Part shown: positions 3,036 to 55,833 of the stretch, piece after piece
Layout of the letters: every line of letters starts with the position of its first letter
Position numbering within the stretch: position 1 is the stretch's first letter
Made by a program: the position numbers and the translations under genes
Notes under the pieces: generated by a model
Seen by the model: the letters and a program-made list of their open reading frames with translations, nothing else
Told to the model about the DNA's origin: nothing
Databases searched by the model: none
NCBI GenBank assembly: GCA_030533005.1
Contig: JAUNJX010000002.1
Location: forward strand, 6,429 to 70,428
Direction of reading: 5' to 3'
Length of the DNA: 64,000 bases
Origin: Clostridia bacterium
GTDB lineage: Bacteria > Bacillota > Clostridia > Christensenellales > CAG-138

Positions 3036-3185
3036 GCGCTTCGCTTTCGCAAACCCGGCTTCGCCGCCTTTGCGAGAAAACGGTTTTCTGCTGTTCGCTT
3101 CGCTTACGGCCGCAGCAAACCGCAAAGAATGAAATCCTTCGGATTTACAAGCGTCCGCACCGGCAAAGCCGATGCGGACGAATTA
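3036..3185. repeat. mosaic hairpin-array repeat, copy R1
   Basis: Starts directly after the jag stop with GCGCTTCGCTTTCGC. Contains module AAATCCTTCGGATTT (3132-3146) and module CGTCCGCACCGGCAAAGCCGATGCGGACG (3152-3180), both shared with other loci. Confidence 0.8.
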
Positions 3186-3257
3186 GCCTAAAGAGATATG
3201 AATGCAGAACCGCGCAGTAGGAAGGGCGAAGCCATTTCTTTGAAAGGAGCAAGCATA

Positions 3258-8117: not shown

Positions 8118-8290
8118 CGCTTTCGCGCCGGGTCATGCGACCCGGCGCGAGATTTTCACTTTGCAACTGTGCGCATACGCGCACGGTCGTTGCAAAGCGC
8201 AGGGACTGAAATCCTTCGGATTTACACACGCCCGCGCCGGCAAAGCCGGCACGGGCGAATGAAGCCTCCGTCCCCATCGGCTCCCCGGAG
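8118..8290. repeat. mosaic hairpin-array repeat, copy R2
   Basis: Starts at the noc stop with CGCTTTCGCGCCGGGTCATGCGACCCGGCGCG. Contains TTGCAAC...GTTGCAA, AAATCCTTCGGATTT (8209-8223) and CGCCCGCGCCGGCAAAGCCGGCACGGGCG (8229-8257). Confidence 0.8.
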
Positions 8291-8925: not shown

Positions 8926-9029
8926 GGAAACACCTCCCAAATCGTCTTTCTTTAGAATACTATCATTATAGGGAAAAATATACGCTTTTGCAAGGCGGTT
9001 CATAAAAAAGCGGCAAAGGACTTCGGAAT

Positions 9030-9232
9030 TGCAACCCCCGGAAGCCAAAATCGCCCGCACCGGTACAAGGCGAGTTGCCGTTAGGCTAAAATCGCCCGCA
9101 CCGGCTTTGCCGGTACGGGCGGAGCGTAAATCCGTCAGGATTTCGTACCCTGCCATTCGCAACGCCCGTGAACGAAGTGAACAGTTGCGAATGGAAAAGC
9201 TCGCTCCCGATCGGTAGATCGGGAGCGAAAGT
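9030..9232. repeat. mosaic hairpin-array repeat, copy R3
   Basis: GCAACCCCCGGAAGCCAAAATCGCCCGCACCGG..., CGCCCGCACCGGCTTTGCCGGTACGGGCG, AAATCCGTCAGGATTT, TTCGCAAC...GTTGCGAA; same module order as at 44600-44700. Confidence 0.8.
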
Positions 9233-12029: not shown

Positions 12030-12340
12030 TGCTTCGCTTTCGCTCCAACAGCTTTGTCGTTGGAGCGAGGTTTACACGCTTTGCCTCTCGCCCTGCGGGC
12101 TTCAAACGGCAAAACATGAAGGGGGATTGTCAAGGGGTCGAGACCCCTTGACTACCAACCGCCCGAAGCGACACACCCCAGGGTGGCTTCTCTTGCCGCT
12201 ATGCGGCAATTCACCTTCTGCGCGGTGAGGGCGGTTGGGCTTGCAAAGCAAGGCTTTCTTTTCGCGTTACAACGGCCGTCCGCGATAGCGGACAGTTGTA
12301 ACGTGTGATCTCAAGAAAGGACGAATGTCCTTTCTTGAAA
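12030..12340. repeat. mosaic hairpin-array repeat, copy R4 (inside the gcv operon)
   Basis: A chain of about 8 hairpin modules between gcvH and gcvPA. GCTTCGCTTTCGCTCCAAC...GTTGGAGCGAGG and TTTGCCTCTCGCCCTGCGGGC recur at 44360-44450. The 113-nt block 12122-12234 recurs inverted at 15258-15370. Confidence 0.85.
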
Positions 12341-14044: not shown

Positions 14045-14227
14045 GCTTTTTAGGGGGTCCGGGGGCCACGGCCCCCGGAGGGTGATTCGCCTACAGCGGC
14101 TTTGCCGGTGGAGGCGTGCGTAAATCCGAAGGATTTCGGACTTTGCAAGCTGCAACGGCCGCGAGCAATGCGAGCAGATGCAGCTTGTAAGCTCGAAAGA
14201 AGGCCGGTAAGCCTTCTTGCGAAACGG
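14045..14227. repeat. mosaic hairpin-array repeat, copy R5
   Basis: GGGGGTCCGGGGGCCACGGCCCCCGGAG, CGCCTACAGCGGCTTTGCCGGTGGAGGCG, AAATCCGAAGGATTT, CTTGCAAGCTGCA...TGCAGCTTGTAAG, CTCGAAAGAAGGCCGGTAAGCCTTCTTGCGAAA. Confidence 0.85.
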
Positions 14228-15127: not shown

Positions 15128-15375
15128 AAAAGGGCTGTCGCCAGCCCTTGTTATCGGCAAAGGTCACTCGACCTTTGCCGATGCTTACAATTTGTAACTG
15201 TTCGCTGTGCTCACGGTCGTTATAAATTGCGGAGAAACCCTTGCTGCGCAAGGCATTCCGCCCTCACCGCGCAGAAGGTGAATTGCCGCATAGCGGCAAG
15301 AGAAGCCACCCTGGGGTGTGTCGCTTCGGGCGGTTGAAAGTCAAGGGGCTGCGACCCCTTGACAATCCCCAAAGG
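15128..15375. repeat. mosaic hairpin-array repeat, copy R6
   Basis: Hairpins AAGGGCTGTCGCCAGCCCTT and CGGCAAAGGTCACTCGACCTTTGCCG, plus the inverted copy (15258-15370) of the 12122-12234 block. Confidence 0.85.
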
Positions 15376-17623: not shown

Positions 17624-17686
17624 TGCGGTAAATCTCCCACTTCCATTAACTTAGAAAATCGTAAATTAGCAAATCGCAATTCGTAA

Positions 17687-18085
17687 TTACTCGTTTTTCT
17701 TGTCATCCTCGTCGTCAAACTCGAATGCGGCGCTGAGATCCTTGCCCTTCGCGGCGGAGGAGGTGCCAGCAGACTGCGCGGCCTTGGCCTTTTGCCTGTC
17801 TGTCATTTTAACGTTGGCGACGAGCATGCCCGCGATGCCGATCATGTTGATGAGCCAAAGTATCCAGCCCCATACGGAGGTTTCCGCCATCAGACCCGTG
17901 AGCTGCAATACGGGGGCTACCATGATGAGGATACCCACGATCCACGCGAAAATGCGCATGACCTTGACGTATTGTTCGCGCGGCACCTTGCAGTATTCGT
18001 TGTCGTAATACCTACCCTTGCCCGTGATGGCCGCATAGAGCAAATATAGGCCGATGCCGATCTCAAAAATGTTAAAAAAGTCCAT
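17687..18085 (-). CDS. hypothetical small membrane protein
   Basis: 132 aa with about 3 hydrophobic segments and an acidic/lysine-rich tail ending DDEDDKKNE. Confidence 0.7.
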   Translation of the reverse strand: MDFFNIFEIGIGLYLLYAAITGKGRYYDNEYCKVPREQYVKVMRIFAWIVGILIMVAPVLQLTGLMAETSVWGWILWLINMIGIAGMLVANVKMTDRQKAKAAQSAGTSSAAKGKDLSAAFEFDDEDDKKNE

Positions 18086-27981: not shown

Positions 27982-28757
27982 TACGGGGCGCGGGTGATTT
28001 GGCGACAGGCATCGCGCTAAGGCTCCGGCGCGCCAATATGGAGGTTGTGATGCTGGAAACGGCGCAGCCTACGGCCATCCGCCGCACCGTCGCCATGAGC
28101 GAGGCCGTGCGCAAGGGCGAAATGCGCGTAGAGGATCTGCGCGGCGTGTTCTGCGCCGACGCGGACGCTGTGAAGCGCGCCATCGCCTCCCGGGATATCG
28201 CCGTGTGCGTCGATCCCGAATGCGCGAACCTCGCAGAATACAAAACAGACGTTCTGGTTGACGCCATCATCGCCAAGCGCAATTTCGGCACGAAAAAGAG
28301 CATGGCGCCCTGCGTGATCGCGCTGGGTCCCGGCTTTGCGGCGGGTATCGACTGCCATGCGGTGGTGGAGACCATGCGGGGTCACGATCTGGGTCGCGTG
28401 TTCTATATGGAGGGCGCGCGCGCGAAGGCGGACACCAAGGTGCCTGGCGAGGTGGGCGGCTTCACGCACGAGCGGGTGATGCATACGCCTTGCGCGGGCG
28501 TGTATGAGCCGGTACGCGAGATCGCGGACGTGGTGAAGGCGGGGGAGGCCGTGGCCTATGTCGAAGGGCAGCCCGTGCTCGCTAAGATCGACGGCATGCT
28601 TCGCGGACAGCTGCCCGCGGGCTTAGTCACGCGCGAGCATATGAAATGCGCCGACGTAGACCCCCGGTGCGAACGCATCCATTGCTTCACGGTATCGGAT
28701 AAGGCGCGCTGTTTAGGCGGCGCGGTGCTCGAGGCGATATTACACCTATGTAATTAG
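27969..28757 (+). CDS. yqeB: selenium-dependent molybdenum cofactor biosynthesis protein YqeB-like
   Basis: MRVVIRGAGDLATGIALRL...AIRRTVAMSEAV...VIALGPGF is typical of the YqeB/EF2563 family (assignment from memory); overlaps the upstream gene. Confidence 0.72.
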   Translation: MRVVIRGAGDLATGIALRLRRANMEVVMLETAQPTAIRRTVAMSEAVRKGEMRVEDLRGVFCADADAVKRAIASRDIAVCVDPECANLAEYKTDVLVDAIIAKRNFGTKKSMAPCVIALGPGFAAGIDCHAVVETMRGHDLGRVFYMEGARAKADTKVPGEVGGFTHERVMHTPCAGVYEPVREIADVVKAGEAVAYVEGQPVLAKIDGMLRGQLPAGLVTREHMKCADVDPRCERIHCFTVSDKARCLGGAVLEAILHLCN

Positions 28758-28910
28758 TAATGAGTAATGAGCAATTAGTAATTATGGGCTTGCACAGCAT
28801 ATGACAAGCTCCGGCATAAATGACAAACAAGAAAGCAAAGCGCGGCGCAAACCTACTCGTTTACGCCGCGCTTTGTTTTTATCTTATCCAACCTTTAATT
28901 ACTCATTATT
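28752..28910. mobile_element. MITE-like element, copy A (TIR AATGAGTAA / TTACTCATT)
   Basis: Left end AGTAATGAGTAATGAG (28756-28771) and right end TTACTCATT (28899-28907). Internal hairpin AAAGCGCGGCGCAAAC-CTACTC-GTTTACGCCGCGCTTT (28837-28874). The right ~75 bp are visibly conserved (most positions identical on hand alignment) with 55528-55605. Confidence 0.7.
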
Positions 28911-32214: not shown

Positions 32215-32410
32215 CACGGACGGCTAAAGAACCCATGGGGGTTCGGGGGCCGCAGCCCACGGAGGCTTGATTCGTGAGCGGCGACATGTGCGCCGCGAGC
32301 GAAAGCCCTTGCTTGCCAAGGGTTTCTCTGCACGGGATGCTGGCCGCGCCGCAGGCGCAAGCAGCCCGTGAAAACTCGAAAAACGTGGCGAAGCCACTTT
32401 TTCGAAACTT
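32215..32410. repeat. mosaic hairpin-array repeat, copy R7
   Basis: GGGGTTCGGGGGCCGCAGCCC, AGCCCTTGCTTGCCAAGGGTT, CACGGG...CCCGTG, CTCGAAAAACGTGGCGAAGCCACTTTTTCGAAA. About 130 nt are homologous in inverted orientation to 48235-48375. Confidence 0.85.
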
Positions 32411-37257: not shown

Positions 37258-37299
37258 ATGCGCACAGCGTATATAGCGAACAATAGCGCTCCACAATGA

Positions 37300-37465
37300 A
37301 CGTATGTCACTGTGACAGTCAAACGGATGTTTTCCGCCTGCCCAGCAAAAAGCCCGCAAGCTGCTTCCTGCTTCGGCGGCCCGCCCTTTCCCGTAGCGTC
37401 GTCATCCCTTGCGGACTCGTCTACGGTACTTTTGCGCGCCGCGCCTCTATCGACTCCGTATGAAA
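37300..37465 (-). promoter_or_regulatory. lysine riboswitch (L box)
   Basis: The minus-strand RNA GAUAGAGGCGCGGCGCGCAAAAGUA...GGGAAAGGGCGGGCCGCCGAAGCAGGA...UUUGCUGGGCAGGCGG...GACUGUCACAGUG aligns block by block with the B. subtilis lysC L box (AGAGGUGC, AGUA, GAAAGGGG, GCCGAAGCA, UGCUGG, CUGUCA). Confidence 0.85.
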
Positions 37466-37643: not shown

Positions 37644-39038
37644 CTATTGAATATTCCTTGAGCCGACGACGCTTTCGGTAATGGTGTCGTAAACAATGAT
37701 GTTTAACCCCGAGCCTGACAGTTGCTGCTCTCGGCTGCCGACGATCACCCCGATGCCATCGTCGGTTCCAGCTTTAAAGAAAACATCATCTATCATTTCC
37801 GACACGGATATCGGTTGCTTTCCCGATGCTATATTTATATCATGTTTTCCCTTGATGATCGCAGCGCAATAAATATCGTTGTCGTTAAAATCGATCAAAT
37901 ATCCAGCCTGCGACAGCAACGCCTCCGCTCTGTCCCGCTGAGCCGCATCGGCAAAGCTTCCCGAAAGCAGGATGATGTGGTTATCGGAATCGATGTATTG
38001 CATGAAATCATTGTCGTCTGCCGCTATTGCCAGCTTATAGGTCCGTATCCACTTGCTGTATTCTAAGTAATCCTCGTCCCAGAATGCGTATTCCTCATCG
38101 TCCTTGTGACTATCAACATAATAATGTTGGTTGATCTGGCGTCCGATATAAGCTGTCATCTTTTCCATTCCGTATATATTAAGGTGTCCTTGATCCCACA
38201 TATCCCTGCCGAAATCCAAACCAATATCATCTATCAGGTGGAAAAAGTTATAATACGCGACATTATTCTCTGCGGCTATCTTGGATATGGAATTCGCTAT
38301 GGTTTGTGTGGTGATACCGGCACAATACGGGGCCGTATATAATATCAACTGGCATTCGTTTTCTTTGCACAGCCGAATTATCTTATTCAAATACTCTTTA
38401 TTCATGTCGTTGATATCGCAAAGCTGCGATTCATCCACTATTTGGGGAGCTTCGAAAGCAGTGTGTCTGGGACGCGAAATATATGCTCCTCTTGAAAATG
38501 CATTCACTTTTGAAGTGGAAAAAATAAAGTCGTCGGTCGTTAATGTATCCCATCTGGAGTGGTAAAGATAAAAAGGAGCATAGTATTCAGTTCGGTTGTG
38601 TTCATTTTCAACAAGATCATTTATTGCATTGATTTTTATAAAAGACAGTGGGTATGCATCCAGAGATCTGTGAAGCTCTTGATTGCCACCAACCGCTTCA
38701 GTACCTGCTGAATGCATTTCCAGTACAATAATTTGCGGTGATTGCCTTTTCATTTCAAGGTTGATCATATTATAAGAATTTGGCAAGGACTGGCTTGATG
38801 TGGAATAAACAAATGAAGAATATCCGTAATCATTCCAAAGCTGCATGGGTAAGATTGAGCAAAATGAATGACTGGAACCGAAAAACATTATATCAATACA
38901 GTTGTCCCTAAGATCATTTTTTGCACGAAAGGGCGGCTCGTGTTTTAGCAAAAGCACATCTGATGCGATAAATATGCTAAAAGCCAATATGCACATAAAT
39001 ATTAAAAAGCTTACTATTTTTATTACTCTTTTCTTCAT
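37644..39038 (-). CDS. membrane-anchored SGNH/DltD-AlgX-like accessory protein of an MBOAT acyltransferase
   Basis: N-terminal TM segment, FFGSSHSF (block I-like) and DMWDQGHLN (D-x-x-H block V-like). Immediately downstream of the MBOAT gene in AT-rich DNA. Confidence 0.7.
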   Translation of the reverse strand: MKKRVIKIVSFLIFMCILAFSIFIASDVLLLKHEPPFRAKNDLRDNCIDIMFFGSSHSFCSILPMQLWNDYGYSSFVYSTSSQSLPNSYNMINLEMKRQSPQIIVLEMHSAGTEAVGGNQELHRSLDAYPLSFIKINAINDLVENEHNRTEYYAPFYLYHSRWDTLTTDDFIFSTSKVNAFSRGAYISRPRHTAFEAPQIVDESQLCDINDMNKEYLNKIIRLCKENECQLILYTAPYCAGITTQTIANSISKIAAENNVAYYNFFHLIDDIGLDFGRDMWDQGHLNIYGMEKMTAYIGRQINQHYYVDSHKDDEEYAFWDEDYLEYSKWIRTYKLAIAADDNDFMQYIDSDNHIILLSGSFADAAQRDRAEALLSQAGYLIDFNDNDIYCAAIIKGKHDINIASGKQPISVSEMIDDVFFKAGTDDGIGVIVGSREQQLSGSGLNIIVYDTITESVVGSRNIQ

Positions 39039-39051
39039 AGCACTCTCCCGC

Positions 39052-40536
39052 TCAAAATTGGAAATAGATGAATGAGGCTGCGGAAAACTCGGGTCCGTAA
39101 TACCCGAATATCAAGACAAACAGCAAAGCAGCTATTATGAATCCCCAGCGGAACCATAACTCCTGCTTATTCAAAAAACTTATAAAGTTGAAATTCCGTC
39201 TTCTCAGTATGCCAGCAAACAGCAATATCCCTATGGATATCAAGGCAAGGCTCACATTTTCTCTGTTCAAGCCCAATGTATACAAGGATTCGTCAAAAAG
39301 CACACCCGGATTAAGGTCTATGAACATACGCCGTATTATCTGAAAAGCGTCCGATAGGCTTTCCGCCCGGAAAAATATCCATGTAAAACTGACCAGTATA
39401 AATGTAAACACAATGCTTATCAGCTTATGACTGAAGCAGTCTCTGTTTATTTTAAATCGTGAAGCTATAGCGTCGCGTGCCTTTTTTGTGACGGACGACG
39501 TGATCTGAAACAAGCCGTTGAGACCTCCCCAGACGACAAAGCTCCAATTCGCGCCGTGCCACAGACCGCTGACCAAAAAAACTATCATCGTGTTCAAATA
39601 TTTCCGCAGCTTGCCTTTTCTGTTTCCGCCCAAGGGGATATATAAATAATCCCGAAACCACGAGGTAAGCGATATGTGCCACCTGTTCCAAAACTCAATA
39701 ATGGATGTAGAAAGATAGGGTGTGTCGAAATTATTCATGAGTCGAAAGCCCATGACCTCTGCCGCCCCTTTGGCTATAGCCGAATATCCGTAAAAATCGC
39801 AGTATATTTGCACGGCGAAAAAGAATGTAGCTACGATCAGATAAAACCCTGTGTACATCTGATAATTCATGTAGACCTGATCGACGATCACCGCAATTCT
39901 GTCCGCAATGACCAGCTTTAAGAAATAACCCCATAGCATAAGGAGTATTCCGCTTTTTGCATTGTCGGCGTTGAAGCAGTGGCGCTCATCTATCTGGTGC
40001 AGTAGATTTTTGGACCGTTCAATGGGTCCCGCGACAAGCTGAGGAAAGAAGGAAACAAACAGTGCATACTTCAGAATATTTTTCTGGGGCTCGATCTCGC
40101 CTCTGTATACATCCATTGTATAGCTCAGTGCCTGGAAAGTGTAGAAGGATATGCCTACAGGTAATAGAATATCAAGCTTGGGTACAGACATTGAGATGTT
40201 TACCAAGGAAAGCAGCGAGCTGAGGTTGCTCGCCAAAAAATCGAAATACTTAAAGAAAATGAGAATAAGGAGATTGAGAGTAAAGCTTAGTGCGACCCAA
40301 AGCTTAGGCGATGCTGTTCGCAACACCCCGGGGGGAGTTATCTTTATAAGAATGCCGCTTAAATATGTAATGACAGTAGAAACAGCCAGCAAGAACGCGT
40401 ATGTGGGATTCCAGCACATGTAAAAGTAATAGCTTGCTATCAGCAAGAAAATGTATCGGATTTTGTGCGGAATCACAAAATAAACAAGGCATACTGTTGG
40501 AAAAAAAAGCAGGAATTCGATTGAATTAAAAAGCAT
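39052..40536 (-). CDS. MBOAT-family O-acyltransferase (AlgI/DltB-like)
   Basis: MLFNSIEFLLFFP... N-terminus and RWHISLTSWFRDYLYIPLGGNR with the conserved MBOAT His; about 10 TM segments. Confidence 0.9.
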   Translation of the reverse strand: MLFNSIEFLLFFPTVCLVYFVIPHKIRYIFLLIASYYFYMCWNPTYAFLLAVSTVITYLSGILIKITPPGVLRTASPKLWVALSFTLNLLILIFFKYFDFLASNLSSLLSLVNISMSVPKLDILLPVGISFYTFQALSYTMDVYRGEIEPQKNILKYALFVSFFPQLVAGPIERSKNLLHQIDERHCFNADNAKSGILLMLWGYFLKLVIADRIAVIVDQVYMNYQMYTGFYLIVATFFFAVQIYCDFYGYSAIAKGAAEVMGFRLMNNFDTPYLSTSIIEFWNRWHISLTSWFRDYLYIPLGGNRKGKLRKYLNTMIVFLVSGLWHGANWSFVVWGGLNGLFQITSSVTKKARDAIASRFKINRDCFSHKLISIVFTFILVSFTWIFFRAESLSDAFQIIRRMFIDLNPGVLFDESLYTLGLNRENVSLALISIGILLFAGILRRRNFNFISFLNKQELWFRWGFIIAALLFVLIFGYYGPEFSAASFIYFQF

Positions 40537-40630
40537 AAATCACCCGTATCCAATGAATTATTAGTTAACATATTGACAGCATAATGGTATATATTTCTCA
40601 ATCATTTTATATACCAAGGAGAGAAAAGCT

Positions 40631-41359
40631 CTATCTTAAAGGACTGTGCTTGGGCACGACGGGCGCGTCCCAGTATAGAAGCGTCCCGTCATAGTTTTGC
40701 GCTAAGTATATGGCGCTGGTGGTCAGCGCATCCACGTCCGGCTTGTTGAGCGTGGCGATCTTGATGATGGCGATGCCGTAGGCGCGCTCCATATCGGGAT
40801 AGAACTGCGTGTCCGAAAGCGCGAAGCCCGCGTGCCGCGCCTGCTCCGAAAACATCACCAGCAGCGGCTCGGAGGGGAAGAACATGTGCAGCCGCACCCG
40901 CCGGGACGCGGGCGTGTAGTCGCCCGCCTTCGCCATGCGCGCGATCATCTCGCGGTTTTGCTCGGTCTGGTATTTCGCGGCGTCGGGGCAAAGCTGCTCG
41001 CCATAGAAGCTCCACGACGGGTCCTCCTGCACGTCCGCGCGGCAGGATAAAAGCTTTTCCTTGGCGTAGGCGTATTCCATGCTCGCAAGCGATACCTTGG
41101 CCTTGCCGTAAAAATAGAACTGGATGCACGTTGCCGTATCTACGCGTCCGGCAAAGAGAAAGCCCTCCTTGACGCATTTTGTTAAAATCGCGTCCGCGTG
41201 GCGGCGGCATCGCCCGTTTATTTCTTTCGGCGCAGAACAATACAGGCGAAACACGAAGGGATAATCCTCCGCGCTTCCCTGCTCGCCCAGCGCGAGATCG
41301 ACGGCGTATTTGGCCGTCTCGCCCTTTTCCTGCCAATCGTATGTGAACCAGTTGGCCAA
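40631..41359 (-). CDS. hypothetical protein (possible DUF695/RraB-like two-domain protein)
   Basis: 242-aa ORF starting 4 nt after the alaS stop, with host-like GC. The family guess is from memory only. Confidence 0.65.
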   Translation of the reverse strand: MANWFTYDWQEKGETAKYAVDLALGEQGSAEDYPFVFRLYCSAPKEINGRCRRHADAILTKCVKEGFLFAGRVDTATCIQFYFYGKAKVSLASMEYAYAKEKLLSCRADVQEDPSWSFYGEQLCPDAAKYQTEQNREMIARMAKAGDYTPASRRVRLHMFFPSEPLLVMFSEQARHAGFALSDTQFYPDMERAYGIAIIKIATLNKPDVDALTTSAIYLAQNYDGTLLYWDAPVVPKHSPLR

Positions 41360-44354: not shown

Positions 44355-44764
44355 CGCGCTGCGCTTTCGCTCCAACGACTTCGCCGTCGGAGCGAGGTTT
44401 GCACGTTTTGCCTCTCGCCCTGCGGGCTCCGAACGGCAAACCGTGAGCGGAAACGGCCACTTGGGCCGATCCGTTCCGCCGGCAGAGCCGTCGGAGCCGG
44501 AACAAATGGGGCTGCCGCCCCATACCCCGGGGGATTCGGGGGTCAGATTCGGATTAAAGCCACAGATGCCGCCCCATACCCTGGGGGATTCGGGGGTCGC
44601 AACCCCCGGAAGCTAAAATCGCCCGCGCCGGCTTTGCCGGTGCGGGCGTGTGTAAATCCGAAGGATTTCAGTCTCTGCGCTTTTCGGCGGCCGTGAGCAA
44701 ACGCGAACAGCCGAAAAGCGTAACCCTCAGACCCGGTCGCATGACCGGGTCTGAAAGCGAAGCG
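44355..44764. repeat. mosaic hairpin-array repeat, copy R9 (largest compound array)
   Basis: Contains the 12030-12115 modules, an internal tandem TGCCGCCCCATACCCYGGGGGATTCGGGGGTC x2 and the GCAACCCCCGGAAGC / CGCCCGCGCCGGCTTTGCCGGTGCGGGCG / AAATCCGAAGGATTT series. Ends CAGACCCGGTCGCATGACCGGGTCTGAAAGCGAAGCG at the AEC gene stop. Confidence 0.85.
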
Positions 44765-48193: not shown

Positions 48194-48385
48194 GAGCTTC
48201 GCTTTCGCGCGAAGTCTATCGGACTTCGCGCGACTTTTTCACGGGTCGCTTGCACCTTTGGTGCGGCCAGCGCCCCGTGCAGAGAAGCCCTTGCATAGCA
48301 AGGGCTTCCGAATCTGACGCGCATGTCGCCAGATTCGGTTTTAACCTCCGGGGGCTGCGGCCCCCGAACCCCCGGAGCTTTGGCA
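48194..48385. repeat. mosaic hairpin-array repeat, copy R10
   Basis: Starts GAGCTTCGCTTTCGCGCGAAG directly after the stop. CACGGG...CCCGTGCAGAGAAGCCCTTGCATAGCAAGGGCTT...GGGGGCTGCGGCCCCCGAACCCC is the inverted homolog of R7. Confidence 0.85.
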
Positions 48386-51440: not shown

Positions 51441-51454
51441 CGAAAACAATGCGT

Positions 51455-51524
51455 AAAACTCGCCCCCGGTCGCATGACCGGGGGCGAAGCGCTACTGCGC
51501 ATGACCGGGGGCGAAGCGCTACTG
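51455..51524. repeat. hairpin module plus 27-bp tandem duplication (copy R11)
   Basis: CGCCCCCGGT-CGCATG-ACCGGGGGCG hairpin. CGCATGACCGGGGGCGAAGCGCTACTG occurs twice in tandem (51471-51497, 51498-51524). The second copy contains the mscS stop codon. Confidence 0.85.
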
Positions 51525-52325
51525 CGCAATATGCACATCAAGCTGCGGGAAGGGGATACTTACGCCCTCCTTTTCAAACGCGGCCTTGACCGCCTCGTTC
51601 ATTTCGCCCGGGACAGAGGCGTAATCCTCCACCTTGCAGTATACCAGCAGCAAGCATACCAGCGCGCTATCCTCCATGCGGGAAAGCACCATGGCGGGCG
51701 CGGGATCTGAAAGCACGCGCGCGTTTTTTTGCGCCGCGTCCAACAGTATCCGGCGCACCTTCTCCACATCCGTGCCGTAGGCCACGATATATTCAAGATC
51801 CTGCCGAAGATAAGGCTCTGCGGAATAGTTGATGACGCGGCCGTTGGAGAGGTTGCCGTTGGGCAGCACCACGCAGCGGTTGTCCCGCGTGCGGATGGTG
51901 GTATAGAACATGCTGACGTCCGTGACCGTGCCCGTCTCGCCGCCCGGCTCCTCGATCACGTCGCCCACCTCGAAGGGCTTAAACAGCAGCACCATCATGC
52001 CGCCCGCAAAGTTGGAAAGGCTGCCCTGCATGGCAAGGCCGATAGCGAGACCCACCGAGCCAAGCAGTGCCACAAGCGATGAGGTCGGCACGCCCACAAC
52101 GCCCGCCGCGATGATGACGAGCATAGCCTTGAGCGCAAAGCCCGCGAAGCTTTTCAGGAATGACGTGGCGCTGGGGCCGATATGCGCTGCCAAGCGGGAC
52201 TTGGGCAGGCGCTTGAGCAGATGATTGACGACGCGGAAGGCCGCAAACAGGCACGCAAGCGTGAGGAGCACCGTCATGAGCTCCCGCATGAAGGGCTTTT
52301 CTAAAAACGCCCAAATCGTTTCCAT
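51519..52325 (-). CDS. mscS: small-conductance mechanosensitive channel
   Basis: TM3/beta-domain motif GLAMQGSLSNFAGGMMVLLFKPFEVGDVI typical of MscS. Confidence 0.85.
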   Translation of the reverse strand: METIWAFLEKPFMRELMTVLLTLACLFAAFRVVNHLLKRLPKSRLAAHIGPSATSFLKSFAGFALKAMLVIIAAGVVGVPTSSLVALLGSVGLAIGLAMQGSLSNFAGGMMVLLFKPFEVGDVIEEPGGETGTVTDVSMFYTTIRTRDNRCVVLPNGNLSNGRVINYSAEPYLRQDLEYIVAYGTDVEKVRRILLDAAQKNARVLSDPAPAMVLSRMEDSALVCLLLVYCKVEDYASVPGEMNEAVKAAFEKEGVSIPFPQLDVHIAQ

Positions 52326-54499: not shown

Positions 54500-55496
54500 C
54501 GAACTGGATAAGATGCTGTTTGCGCTTGGCGACGAAGCGGACGCGCAGGTGGATTACGACGCCATGTATCGCGCCATCAAGCAAAAGCAAAGAAGCGCGA
54601 AGCCCGCGATGCACTATGCACGGTGGGGCGCTGTGGCCGCGTGCGCCCTCGTCCTTGCGGGCGTGAGCCTGTTTGCGCTGCGCGGCGGCGCGGGGAAGGG
54701 CTTTGCGGACATGGCGGCACCCGCGGCGGAAGCGCCCGCGCCCGCGGCGGCAGAACCGCAGATGGCCGCCTATGCGCTGGACAGCGCCGTGACGGAAAGC
54801 GCCGTGGAGGAAGCCGCGCCCGCGGAGATGGAGATGATGGACGCGGCGGCGGCAGAGAAGGACACGGCGGCGGGCGCCGTGCAGGGTCGTGCGGAAACGA
54901 CGATGGCCAACGCACCCTATGCGCGCCTTATCAACCGTGAAAACGCCAACACGCTGACGGCGGCGGATGTACCGCAAAGCCTCATGCGCGTCGCGGGCGC
55001 GGGGCTGCCCGCGAACGTCACGCTCAAGCGCGGGAAGGAAATGGCGGACGAAACGGCAACGAGCGCTTTCCTTGCCATGATGGAAGCGGCGCAAGCGGAC
55101 GGCGTGGAGGGCTTTTATCTGGTGAGCGCCTATCGCTCCTATGAGGAGCAGCAGACGATCTGGCTCAACAAGCTTGAGGAAAACCCCGATTACGGTGCAA
55201 ACGGCGAGCCTGTGGCGAGCATGCCGCCGGGCAGCAGCGAACACCAGACCGGCCTTGCCTTTGACATCACGGCGGTGGATAACAAGGCCATGCGCGCCGC
55301 CTTTGCGGATACCCCGCAGGGCGTATGGTTACGGGAAAACTGCGCGTCCTTCGGCTTTATCCTGCGGTATCCAAAGGATAAAGAGGATATCACCGGCGTC
55401 GTGTACGAGCCGTGGCACTTCCGCTATGTCGGGGAGGATATGGCAAAGTATCTGACGGAGAACGGGCTTGCACTTGAAGAAATGAGTAATGAGTAA
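54492..55496 (+). CDS. single-pass membrane protein: short anti-sigma-like N-terminus + extracytoplasmic VanY/M15B D,D-carboxypeptidase domain
   Basis: ATG 54492 after GGAGGTGAG, overlapping the sigma gene by 8 nt. TM segment WGAVAACALVLAGVSLFAL and an Ala-rich linker. M15 motifs SEHQTGLAFD and EPWHFRYVG. Confidence 0.8.
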   Translation: MADELDKMLFALGDEADAQVDYDAMYRAIKQKQRSAKPAMHYARWGAVAACALVLAGVSLFALRGGAGKGFADMAAPAAEAPAPAAAEPQMAAYALDSAVTESAVEEAAPAEMEMMDAAAAEKDTAAGAVQGRAETTMANAPYARLINRENANTLTAADVPQSLMRVAGAGLPANVTLKRGKEMADETATSAFLAMMEAAQADGVEGFYLVSAYRSYEEQQTIWLNKLEENPDYGANGEPVASMPPGSSEHQTGLAFDITAVDNKAMRAAFADTPQGVWLRENCASFGFILRYPKDKEDITGVVYEPWHFRYVGEDMAKYLTENGLALEEMSNE

Positions 55497-55605
55497 TGAG
55501 TTGGGCAGACCACTTTTGATAAAACCAAACAGCACGGCGCAAACCTTCTCGTTTGCGCCGTGCTTTGTTTTTTCTTACCCAACCTCAAATTACCTATTAC
55601 TCATT
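55481..55605. mobile_element. MITE-like element, copy B (TIR AATGAGTAA / TTACTCATT)
   Basis: Left end AATGAGTAATGAGTAATGAG (55481-55500) and right end TTACTCATT (55597-55605). Internal hairpin AGCACGGCGCAAAC-CTTCTC-GTTTGCGCCGTGCT + T-run (55531-55573). Confidence 0.7.
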
Positions 55606-55833
55606 GAATACAAGGTACGGCTTGAGCTTGTCAAAATCCTCCGGCTCGCTTAAAACAAGCTCGATGCCGTCCACACGCTGATCCTGAAACATCTGCGTCA
55701 GCGCGATGTACTGGCACAGGGTGGAGCGCATGTTGAGCCTGTCCCCCTCGTCGGTGACGAGCTCCACGCGACCCTTACAGGTGTTGATGGCGCGGAAAAG
55801 CTCCGCGGGCTCTGCGATATTGCGAATTTGCAT
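55597..55833 (-). CDS. hypothetical 78-aa protein
   Basis: ORF coupled to the upstream MBL gene (start 3 nt after its stop); no motif recognised. Confidence 0.55.
   Translation of the reverse strand: MQIRNIAEPAELFRAINTCKGRVELVTDEGDRLNMRSTLCQYIALTQMFQDQRVDGIELVLSEPEDFDKLKPYLVFNE

Follow-up and report, generated by a model that had tools for sequence, protein, structure and literature searches.

What brings four genes in two convergent pairs to end in nearly the same way, each inside a small sequence that recurs at both sites? The question is raised by a 64-kb stretch of the genome of a Clostridia bacterium (contig JAUNJX010000002.1, positions 6,429 to 70,428; hereafter the window, meaning the whole 64,000 nt analysed), in which two related intergenic modules, copy A (28750-28910) and copy B (55478-55606), each lie between convergent protein genes. 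An earlier description made without database searches (the sequence-only reading) took them either for copies of an element resembling a miniature inverted-repeat transposable element (MITE) that targets gene 3' ends, or for a conserved stop/terminator cassette. We propose that A and B are probably foldback modules, devoid of an open reading frame (ORF), of the inverted heptamer-array class that includes the intervening sequences (IVSs) of 23S rRNA and their S23p genes, and that their function is to provide stops and a terminator. They would thus represent an ORF-less, terminator-bearing variant of this class and not ordinary transposon-derived MITEs.

The two modules and their position between convergent genes are as the sequence-only reading had them, with agreement between the inspected sequence, the pattern counts and the ORF listing. 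Where 0.22 occurrences of the motif AATGAGTAA would be expected, the window has five, a number attained in none of 100 shuffles, and all of them are confined to copies A and B. Likewise, the patterns for hairpin and tail (the latter TCTTAYCCAACCT..AATTAC) match at these two places only, with 0 matches expected for either. The copies share a common core of 52 nt with 90% identity (E 3e-10), and their GC content is 38-41% in a window of 58%. They are built as follows.

28750..28785, plus strand: left arm of copy A, five units TAATTAG TAATGAG TAATGAG CAATTAG TAATTAT, period 7 according to Tandem Repeats Finder (TRF)
28752-28757, plus strand: first unit of this arm, where yqeB has its last codon and its stop, TAG
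28786..28835, plus strand: internal spacer of copy A, containing an additional small hairpin GGGCTTGCAC...CAAGCTCC and an A-rich run (RNA fold); the run precedes the terminator and is the U-tract of the minus strand, whose tail reads CTTTCTTGTT (terminator scan)
28836..28875, no strand assigned: central GC-rich hairpin of copy A, 17 pairs and a 6-nt loop, predicted bidirectional intrinsic terminator
28876..28894, plus strand: T-run and conserved tail TTTTTATCTTATCCAACCT of copy A (tail pattern, alignment)
28895..28910, minus strand: right arm of copy A, about two inverted units, read on the minus strand as AAT AAT GAG TAA TTA and encoding N-N-E and the TAA stop of pepV (28899-28901)
55478..55501, plus strand: left arm of copy B, three units AAATGAG TAATGAG TAATGAG, encoding the M-S-N-E tail and the stop of the VanY-domain gene
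55502..55530, plus strand: inner closing stem (TTGGG...) of copy B and an A-rich run before the hairpin (fold)
55531..55564, no strand assigned: central hairpin of copy B, 14 pairs and a 6-nt loop, terminator-like on both strands
55565..55585, plus strand: T-run and conserved tail TTGTTTTTTCTTACCCAACCT of copy B (pattern, alignment)
55586..55606, minus strand: right arm of copy B, three inverted units, read on the minus strand as CAATGAG TAATAGG TAATTTG and encoding the N-E tail and the TAA stop (55597-55599) of a 78-aa gene

The arms consist of two to five tandem 7-nt units of the type TAATGAG/TAATTAG that face inwards from both sides. TRF reports 5.0 copies of a period-7 repeat at 28750-28784 and 3.0, with 100% matches, at 55481-55501; the right ends are inverted units, of which copy A has about two and copy B three, and the alignment shows that the two right arms differ by exactly one unit. 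The ends are therefore inverted and complementary, as the sequence-only reading held, but they are tandem arrays and not a single 9-nt terminal inverted repeat. In the window, arrays with period 7 and at least 20 nt are limited to copies A and B, a site at 17647-17697 and one weak match at 189-208. This build already bears on the hypothesis of a true MITE, which regards A and B as deletion derivatives of an insertion sequence, moved in trans by a transposase that recognizes AATGAGTAA ends and prefers the 3' ends of genes. Inverted ends, small size, lack of coding capacity, intergenic location and the 84-90% identity of the two cores are all features of such elements, but ends made of tandem heptamers that differ by a one-unit (7-nt) indel are not, and no target-site duplication is found at either copy, the ends running into coding sequence on both sides.

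The unit itself explains the likeness of the four gene ends. As 7 is not a multiple of 3 and the unit contains TAA plus TGA or TAG, every frame of an array meets a stop within five codons: (TAATGAG)n reads in its three frames as an immediate stop, NE-stop and MSNE-stop, and (TAATTAG)n as an immediate stop, N-stop and ISN-stop; the reverse complement of TAATGAG is free of stops. According to the ORF listing, all four flanking genes terminate inside the module ends, namely the VanY-domain gene with ...EEMSNE (TAA stop at 55494-55496), the 78-aa gene with ...VFNE (minus strand, stop at 55597-55599), pepV with ...ATNNE (minus strand, stop at 28899-28901) and yqeB with ...LCN (TAG stop at 28755-28757), which bears out the earlier statement that three genes end in Asn-Glu-stop and yqeB in Cys-Asn-stop. 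The common Asn-Glu-stop follows from the reading-frame property of the unit; it is a property of the heptamer and no signature of targeting. The sequence-only reading had stressed that the genes finish in the same frame, which loses its weight when two of the three frames of (TAATGAG)n yield ...NE-stop.

The flanking genes are genuine: the M20 peptidase (pepV) and VanY are recognized by Pfam, YqeB by TIGR03309, and the 78-aa protein has 371 relatives at E <= 0.001. Their orthologs, in turn, end differently. The orthologs of pepV continue after ALAT with ADA, K or EQK, or end in ALAGR, where the gene of the window has ALATNNE; those of VanY continue after LEE with GISN, AIS, ALN or FYQ, where here we find MSNE; and the family of the 78-aa protein ends with Y[LIM][VIM] and two to four variable residues, replaced here by FNE. 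YqeB extends two residues beyond the end of the TIGR03309 family model. Hence the comparisons for pepV, VanY and the 78-aa protein agree with the earlier claim that the module ends supply the last codons and stops of their neighbors; judging by these alignments, array-encoded residues replace short and poorly conserved tails. A tiny repeat module can in this way set the ends of genes at the level of both protein and RNA, with a 7-nt unit whose stop triplets ensure termination in all frames, at the cost of variable C-terminal residues in at least three genes.

At the RNA level, each module is predicted to form one long imperfect hairpin, in which the arms enclose a GC-rich hairpin of 14-17 bp. 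The fold energy is -52.4 kcal/mol for both, with z -6.0 for copy A and z -8.7 for copy B. The arms of copy A pair in the minimum-free-energy as well as the centroid fold. The closing stem has about 26 bp in copy B; in copy A it runs to about 12 bp without a break, or to about 28 bp if interruptions are allowed. Among four homologous cores, compensatory changes occur at two of the 13 stem pairs of the inner hairpin. In the terminator scan the central hairpin of copy B is called terminator-like on both strands and that of copy A on the minus strand; on the plus strand the stem of copy A has one C/A mismatch, followed by TTTGTTTTT. The conserved bidirectional terminator hairpin of the sequence-only reading is thus borne out by the scans, its span in copy A being corrected to 28836-28875. 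Rfam, at the gathering threshold, gives no match at copy A or copy B, and no rRNA in the window.

From these elements the following mode of action can be proposed. As the sequence itself shows, a ribosome entering from either flank halts in any frame within five codons, and the arrays have overrun the poorly conserved last two to four codons of their neighbors, leaving the ends ...NE-stop, ...MSNE-stop and ...N-stop. The central hairpin is predicted to terminate both convergent transcripts. RNA that nevertheless reads through would contain both arms, and their duplex would be, by analogy, of the kind that RNase III cleaves in IVSs, so that convergent transcription may be insulated twice. The module would be inherited mostly vertically and only occasionally copied from one intergenic site to another within a genome, or homogenized between such sites by gene conversion, a copying that would differ from classical cut-and-paste transposition.

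The sequence-only reading had pointed to a possible decayed third copy at the end of a membrane-protein gene. The related heptamers and the ...KNE-stop are indeed there, but the site is a solo array that lacks the hairpin core, the covariance model of which matches only copies A and B.

17647..17697, plus strand: solo array of about five related units, TAAATTAG CAAATCG CAATTCG TAATTAC, followed by one inverted unit TTACTCGTT

The inverted unit TTACTCGTT gives the end ...KNE-stop to a 132-aa gene on the minus strand, and the array fills the spacer up to the ribosome-binding site (RBS) and start of the next gene. TRF describes the site with period 15 and two copies.

A third, longer copy was found outside the window. 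Extension of the contig by look-up of exactly identical proteins yielded locus L022, which overlaps the window with 3183 of 3183 identical bases. In it, a 590-bp segment (1930-2520 of L022) with a GC content of 39% lies between the stop of gyrB and the start of gyrA, upstream of the window at a distance of 6.4-7 kb. The segment is bounded by four to five TAATTAG units on one side and by the inverted units AATTACT AATTACT CATTACG AATTACT on the other, and the fold places the arrays in a closing stem of about 33 bp around an enclosed gene. This gene encodes a protein of the families PF05635 ("23S rRNA-intervening sequence protein") and TIGR02436 ("four helix bundle protein"), with E-values of 8.5e-29 and 8.7e-32, and appears to be frameshifted in a run of six T. 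A short TTGCACA box lies beside the left array. Under the sequence-only reading a full-length autonomous element with the same ends was to be sought; the one longer copy with the same arrays that was found, in about 10 kb of the same genome outside the window, carries a four-helix-bundle ORF and no transposase. A tblastn search detected no four-helix-bundle ORF in the window itself. In L022 the array ends 8 nt ahead of the ATG of gyrA, with no Shine-Dalgarno sequence visible.

Neither blastn-short nor a covariance model of the hairpin plus tail revealed another copy of the core in the window or in about 109 kb of other sequence, made up of about 10 kb of the same genome (L022 and L023) and, for the rest, of relatives and outgroup loci. 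A scan of a genome collection, which does not include the source species, with the pattern AAACCTNCTCGTTTN{16,30}CCAACCT gave 15 matches in unrelated taxa, about the level of chance.

The four-helix-bundle protein has thousands of relatives, and its surroundings show that the architecture of L022 is not peculiar to one genome. We fetched 80 metagenome loci with a profile of 30 relatives. Within 150 nt of the gene, a period-7 array is present on the upstream side in 59 of 65 loci and on the downstream side in 55 of 66, and where both arrays are present they are inverted in 37 of 44 cases and direct in seven (binomial p 5e-6). Arrays have a median of 4.6 units, or 32 nt, and are most often 31-34 nt long, a mode that lies well above the detection floor; among about 283 tandem arrays in the set, 192 have a period of 7, 14 or 21. 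The units vary widely between loci (AATTGAC, AATTCGG, TGCGGAA, GAGAGTG and others), and cognate flanks pair better than mismatched ones (median -57.5 vs -38.3 kcal/mol, p 1e-11). All eight plasmid-borne genes fetched, from five phyla (two from Nostoc and one each from Euhalothece, Planktothrix, Bernardetia, Treponema, Chlorohelix and Monoglobus), have arrays, as do the six closest homologs on viral contigs; five more distant viral ones do not show the arrangement. In 38 of 44 loci the upstream neighbor has its stop inside the array or directly against it, which makes overlap with gene ends a general property of the class.

Of the 80 loci, three turned out to be 23S rRNA genes carrying classical intervening sequences with the same array architecture. 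One of these genes, in L043 (88-3336), contains three inverted-heptamer insertions of the AGTTGAA/AACTGTC type, one with a four-helix-bundle ORF at 1489-1851 and two, at 389-506 and 2525-2644, without an ORF. ORF-less inverted array pairs occur elsewhere too, and where a comparison is possible, such pairs and solo arrays mostly have the same unit as a gene-bearing copy on the same contig (L043, L056, L094, L067); in L106, L110, L054 and L036 the unit differs.

Selection for inward-facing stops was considered as a further trait of the class and rejected: an inward stop is present in 82 of 118 arrays and an outward one in 46 of 118, but the former share is near the 63% expected from an A/G-rich, C-poor strand, so that selection is inseparable from strand composition.

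Other peculiarities of these loci deserve mention. Four-helix-bundle genes with their arrays recur inside restriction-modification and defense operons (L024-L033, L119, L120, L121, L128-L137), in contexts such as hsdS-hsdR, DrmD-PglX, helicase-N6 methylase, N6_N4 methylase-ResIII and SNF2 helicase-DUF4391-methylase, and there the arrays occupy the entire spacer on each side of the gene. In L034 a direct repeat of about 120 nt (1224-1345 and 1706-1830) flanks the four-helix-bundle gene and contains its last codons, its stop and AATTATC arrays, as if a neighboring tandem copy of the gene had been deleted. Very long upstream arrays are found in L091 (1254-1498) and L118 (19-306), with 35 and 41 heptamer units as against the usual length of about 32 nt. 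In a large clustering study, "23S rRNA IVP" is among the proteins with an enhanced CRISPR-association score (PMC10910872); tandem arrays beside such genes might contribute to these scores.

Several well-known kinds of repeats resemble the modules in part. Bacterial MITEs (Correia/CREE, RUP, ERIC) are small, non-coding, intergenic, have inverted ends and can donate terminators and stops; they also have target-site duplications, terminal inverted repeats of unique sequence and a cognate transposase of an insertion sequence. Copies A and B differ from them in the absence of target-site duplications, in arms composed of tandem heptamers and in that no transposase partner was found in about 73 kb of the source genome. 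In the REPIN-RAYT system, hairpin doublets are dispersed between often convergent genes, one associated gene is flanked by these repeats in inverted orientation, and inheritance is largely vertical. Here, however, the associated gene encodes a 120-aa four-helix bundle and not a Y1 transposase, and the repeats are tandem heptamers instead of a single REP palindrome. Eukaryotic foldback (FB) transposons have long inverted termini composed of short tandem repeats in variable number, but they belong to another domain of life, are much larger and have transposase-bearing partners.

The closest parallel is with the 23S rRNA IVSs with an S23p ORF of Leptospira and Coxiella (PMC4990558). Like A and B, these have complementary arms (a stem of 25-30 bp in the IVSs) with tandem heptamers in the arm, and the loop of an IVS may hold the S23p ORF or nothing. 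In Coxiella, the 28-bp terminal stem is cut by RNase III, and the tandem heptamers, two to three copies of GACAGAT, lie at the cleavage site (PMC4990558). Copies A and B depart from the definition of an IVS in two respects, as they lie outside 23S rRNA and contain no ORF, and differ further in that they enclose an intrinsic terminator and overlap the 3' ends of protein genes. In Xanthomonas there are about 70 inverted pairs of (GGGAATC)n arrays per genome, with a positional conservation of 83-90% (Rehm et al. 2015, PMC4692102). As in A and B, two 7-nt arrays are convergent on opposite strands, close together, intergenic and mostly conserved in position; unlike them, the unit of A and B is AT-rich and stop-rich, neither G-rich nor able to form G-quadruplexes, and is joined to a defined terminator core and to overlap with gene ends. 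The Xanthomonas paper (PMC4692102) draws no link to four-helix-bundle genes. The TAACTGA arrays of Beggiatoaceae, cyanobacteria and Bacteroidetes, with three-frame stops in one orientation, overlap ORF ends by up to about two units and abut start codons without an RBS (MacGregor 2015, PMC4679880). These and the cyanobacterial STRR heptamers are 7-nt tandem arrays like those of A and B, and the gyrA side of L022, which abuts a start without an RBS, has the same feature; in contrast to A and B, the TAACTGA arrays are direct, with one inverted case, and neither a terminator core nor an associated gene is reported for them (PMC4679880).

How old are the two copies, and how are they related? The module of copy B is present at the same spacer between the VanY-domain gene and the 78-aa gene in L126, whose VanY is 62% identical: a TAATGAA array starts from the VanY stop, a homologous hairpin and tail follow, and an inverted array gives the 78-aa gene the end ...FHE-stop (fold -69 kcal/mol, z -5.4). 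L124 (VanY 58% identical) retains hairpin and tail together with one or two units on the right, and L125 (VanY 45% identical) has a different neighbor and no module. The unit is altered on both arms together, being TAATGAG/CTCATTA in the window and TAATGAA/TTCATTA in L126. Because the same module occupies the orthologous site in L126 and, in part, in L124, copy B is ancient and vertically inherited. Such conservation of position at only 58-62% VanY identity is not expected of a mobile MITE.

The history of copy A is different. In L017 its site has another neighbor and an unrelated terminator, without the module; a 12-nt match, TTTTATCTTATC, downstream of pepV in this locus was dismissed as chance, as it has the opposite orientation relative to pepV and E 1.2. 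In L020, whose pepV is 77% identical, the yqeB/pepV pair is kept and the spacer, 330 bp long and unrelated, contains unrelated terminators and, by BLAST and the covariance model, no core, from which it follows that the core arrived at the yqeB/pepV site secondarily. Yet yqeB of L020 (11699-11712) ends with ATC AGT AAT TAG, i.e. ...ISN-stop, the frame-2 reading of TAATTAG units, as if an array remnant at this gene end were old. Finally, the cores of A and B are 84% identical to each other, as compared with 65% between B and its positional orthologs; copy A is thus the closest relative of B, and the two have exchanged sequence within this lineage, by copying or by gene conversion.

The absence of copy A from the syntenic spacer of L020 would be expected of a MITE, but against such an element stand, besides the missing target-site duplications, the variable heptamer number and the positional conservation of copy B in L126 and L124, a sole longer sibling that encodes a four-helix-bundle ORF and no transposase, the failure to find a further core copy in the additional sequence, about 10 kb of it from the same genome, and the fact that, over many samples, every set of identical four-helix-bundle genes keeps to a single genomic context. 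We therefore regard a true MITE as quite improbable. Identical copies of the proteins P0169 and of P0136, each always in a single context, equally lend no support to the idea that four-helix-bundle genes have hopped recently.

The other alternative offered by the sequence-only reading, a conserved stop/terminator cassette, comes closer than an element targeting 3' ends, which finds no support; even so, the higher identity of A and B to each other than of B to its orthologs means that some copying or gene conversion between sites has taken place. In its strict form it would have a purely local cassette evolve in place and remain immobile, with the likeness of A and B due only to gene conversion or convergent selection. 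The vertical inheritance of copy B, the possible array remnant in yqeB of L020, the invariance of arrays across 10 samples at each of two loci and the positional conservation of the Xanthomonas pairs (PMC4692102) all agree with such a view. However, a 52-nt core with 90% identity that includes the loop and the unpaired tail cannot be due to convergence, the core reached the yqeB/pepV site secondarily, the spacer of L020 being unrelated, and the occurrence of the same architecture in rRNA helices, operons and plasmids across phyla implies spread. On balance we find this alternative rather unlikely.

The variation in the number of units invites yet another explanation, namely that the arrays are hypermutable simple-sequence repeats (contingency loci), in which a change in unit number switches the expression or the C-termini of neighbors. 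The right arms of A and B do differ by one unit, and Coxiella strains differ by one heptamer (PMC4990558). Nonetheless, no variation in unit number was detected either at two other loci, at each of which 10 independent samples have identical arrays, or between the window and an independent assembly, which are identical across the copy B region; moreover, a change in unit number would leave the outcome unchanged, as every frame stops. Phase variation was rejected on the ground of the identical arrays, and we consider the hypothesis as a whole hardly credible.

Returning to the inverted heptamer-array class as our preferred assignment of A and B, several points weigh against it. What ties A and B to the segment of L022 by homology is the shared unit, the architecture and the short TTGCACA box; homology cannot be demonstrated for the interior, where the covariance model of the core has no match and BLAST matches are confined to the arrays. 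Only two to three copies are seen in about 73 kb of the source genome. The right arm of copy A has only about two units, so that its uninterrupted closing stem is limited to about 12 bp. With an efficient central terminator, no natural transcript would include both arms, and arm pairing, considered by analogy with IVSs, would matter only for read-through.

It is possible, if doubtful, that the arrays have a more specific meaning, being the cognate nucleic-acid ligand of the pentameric S23p/Avd-like four-helix-bundle protein. Copies A and B would then be satellites maintained or spread by the protein, as REPINs are by RAYTs, and their effects as stops and terminators would be by-products. The association of arrays with the gene is near-universal in our sample, the length mode of 31-34 nt equals that of five motifs at 7-nt spacing (32 nt), and most comparable ORF-less pairs and solo arrays share their unit with a gene-bearing copy on the same contig; the units differ between lineages, yet match on both arms. 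A homologous crystal entry, PDB 2RLD (E 2.5e-37), has five chains, and S23p of Xanthomonas has been reported as a homopentamer (PMC4990558). On the other hand, the binding is putative, and the length mode could equally reflect a requirement for a certain length of double-stranded RNA. The four-helix-bundle gene of this genome is apparently frameshifted in its T6 run, the protein has no known catalytic activity and no match in PADLOC or PHROGs that would hint at its function, and the work on Coxiella suggests that S23p may not be translated (PMC4990558).

It is tempting to generalize this idea, although we do so tentatively and think the generalization more likely wrong than right: inverted arrays of about five motifs (about 32 nt) may be the ligand of S23p/Avd-like proteins throughout, and together they may constitute one widespread class of selfish RNA/DNA elements. 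If so, the 23S rRNA intervening sequences would belong to this class, and its members would insert wherever a broken RNA is tolerated, i.e. in surface helices of rRNA, between cistrons and at the 3' ends of genes. The class would also explain why bacteria have, as has long been noted, an excess of heptameric repeats (STRR, TAACTGA, GGGAATC pairs), and ORF-less derivatives such as A and B would be kept by their hosts as insulators that combine a three-frame stop with a terminator. Three separate puzzles could thereby be linked, namely the 23S rRNA IVSs with S23p, the thousands of orphan four-helix-bundle genes and the over-representation of heptameric repeats, and if the link holds, it offers a concrete idea of what a very large and uncharacterized protein family may do. 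In the literature that we searched, no paper ties heptamer arrays to four-helix-bundle genes as a rule.

Apart from the modules, the window contains a second, unrelated repeat system, composed of GC-rich (55-68%) intergenic repeats of 90-250 nt, with at least 10 copies in the 64 kb and in both orientations. They share hairpin modules, e.g. GGGGGTCCGGGGGCC..GGCCCCCGGA, CGCCCGCACCGGCTTTGCCGGTGCGGGCG and AAATCCGAAGGATTT, and have very stable folds. A perfect 27-nt tandem duplication, CGCATGACCGGGGGCGAAGCGCTACTG, at 51471-51528 (2.1 copies, 100% identity) overlaps one of the GC-rich hairpin modules. The only Rfam match in the window is a lysine riboswitch.

3091-3189, 8118-8270, 9018-9121, 12031-12279, 14053-14177 and 15213-15370: GC-rich repeats
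32237-32374, 44358-44446, 44585-44759, 48236-48373 and 51447-51528: GC-rich repeats
37276-37457, minus strand: lysine riboswitch (Rfam RF00168, 109 bits)

An AT-rich island at 38000-41000, with a GC content of 39-48%, contains a gene for an MBOAT-family acyltransferase and a 464-aa ORF without a Pfam match, and is followed by a DUF695/RraB gene.

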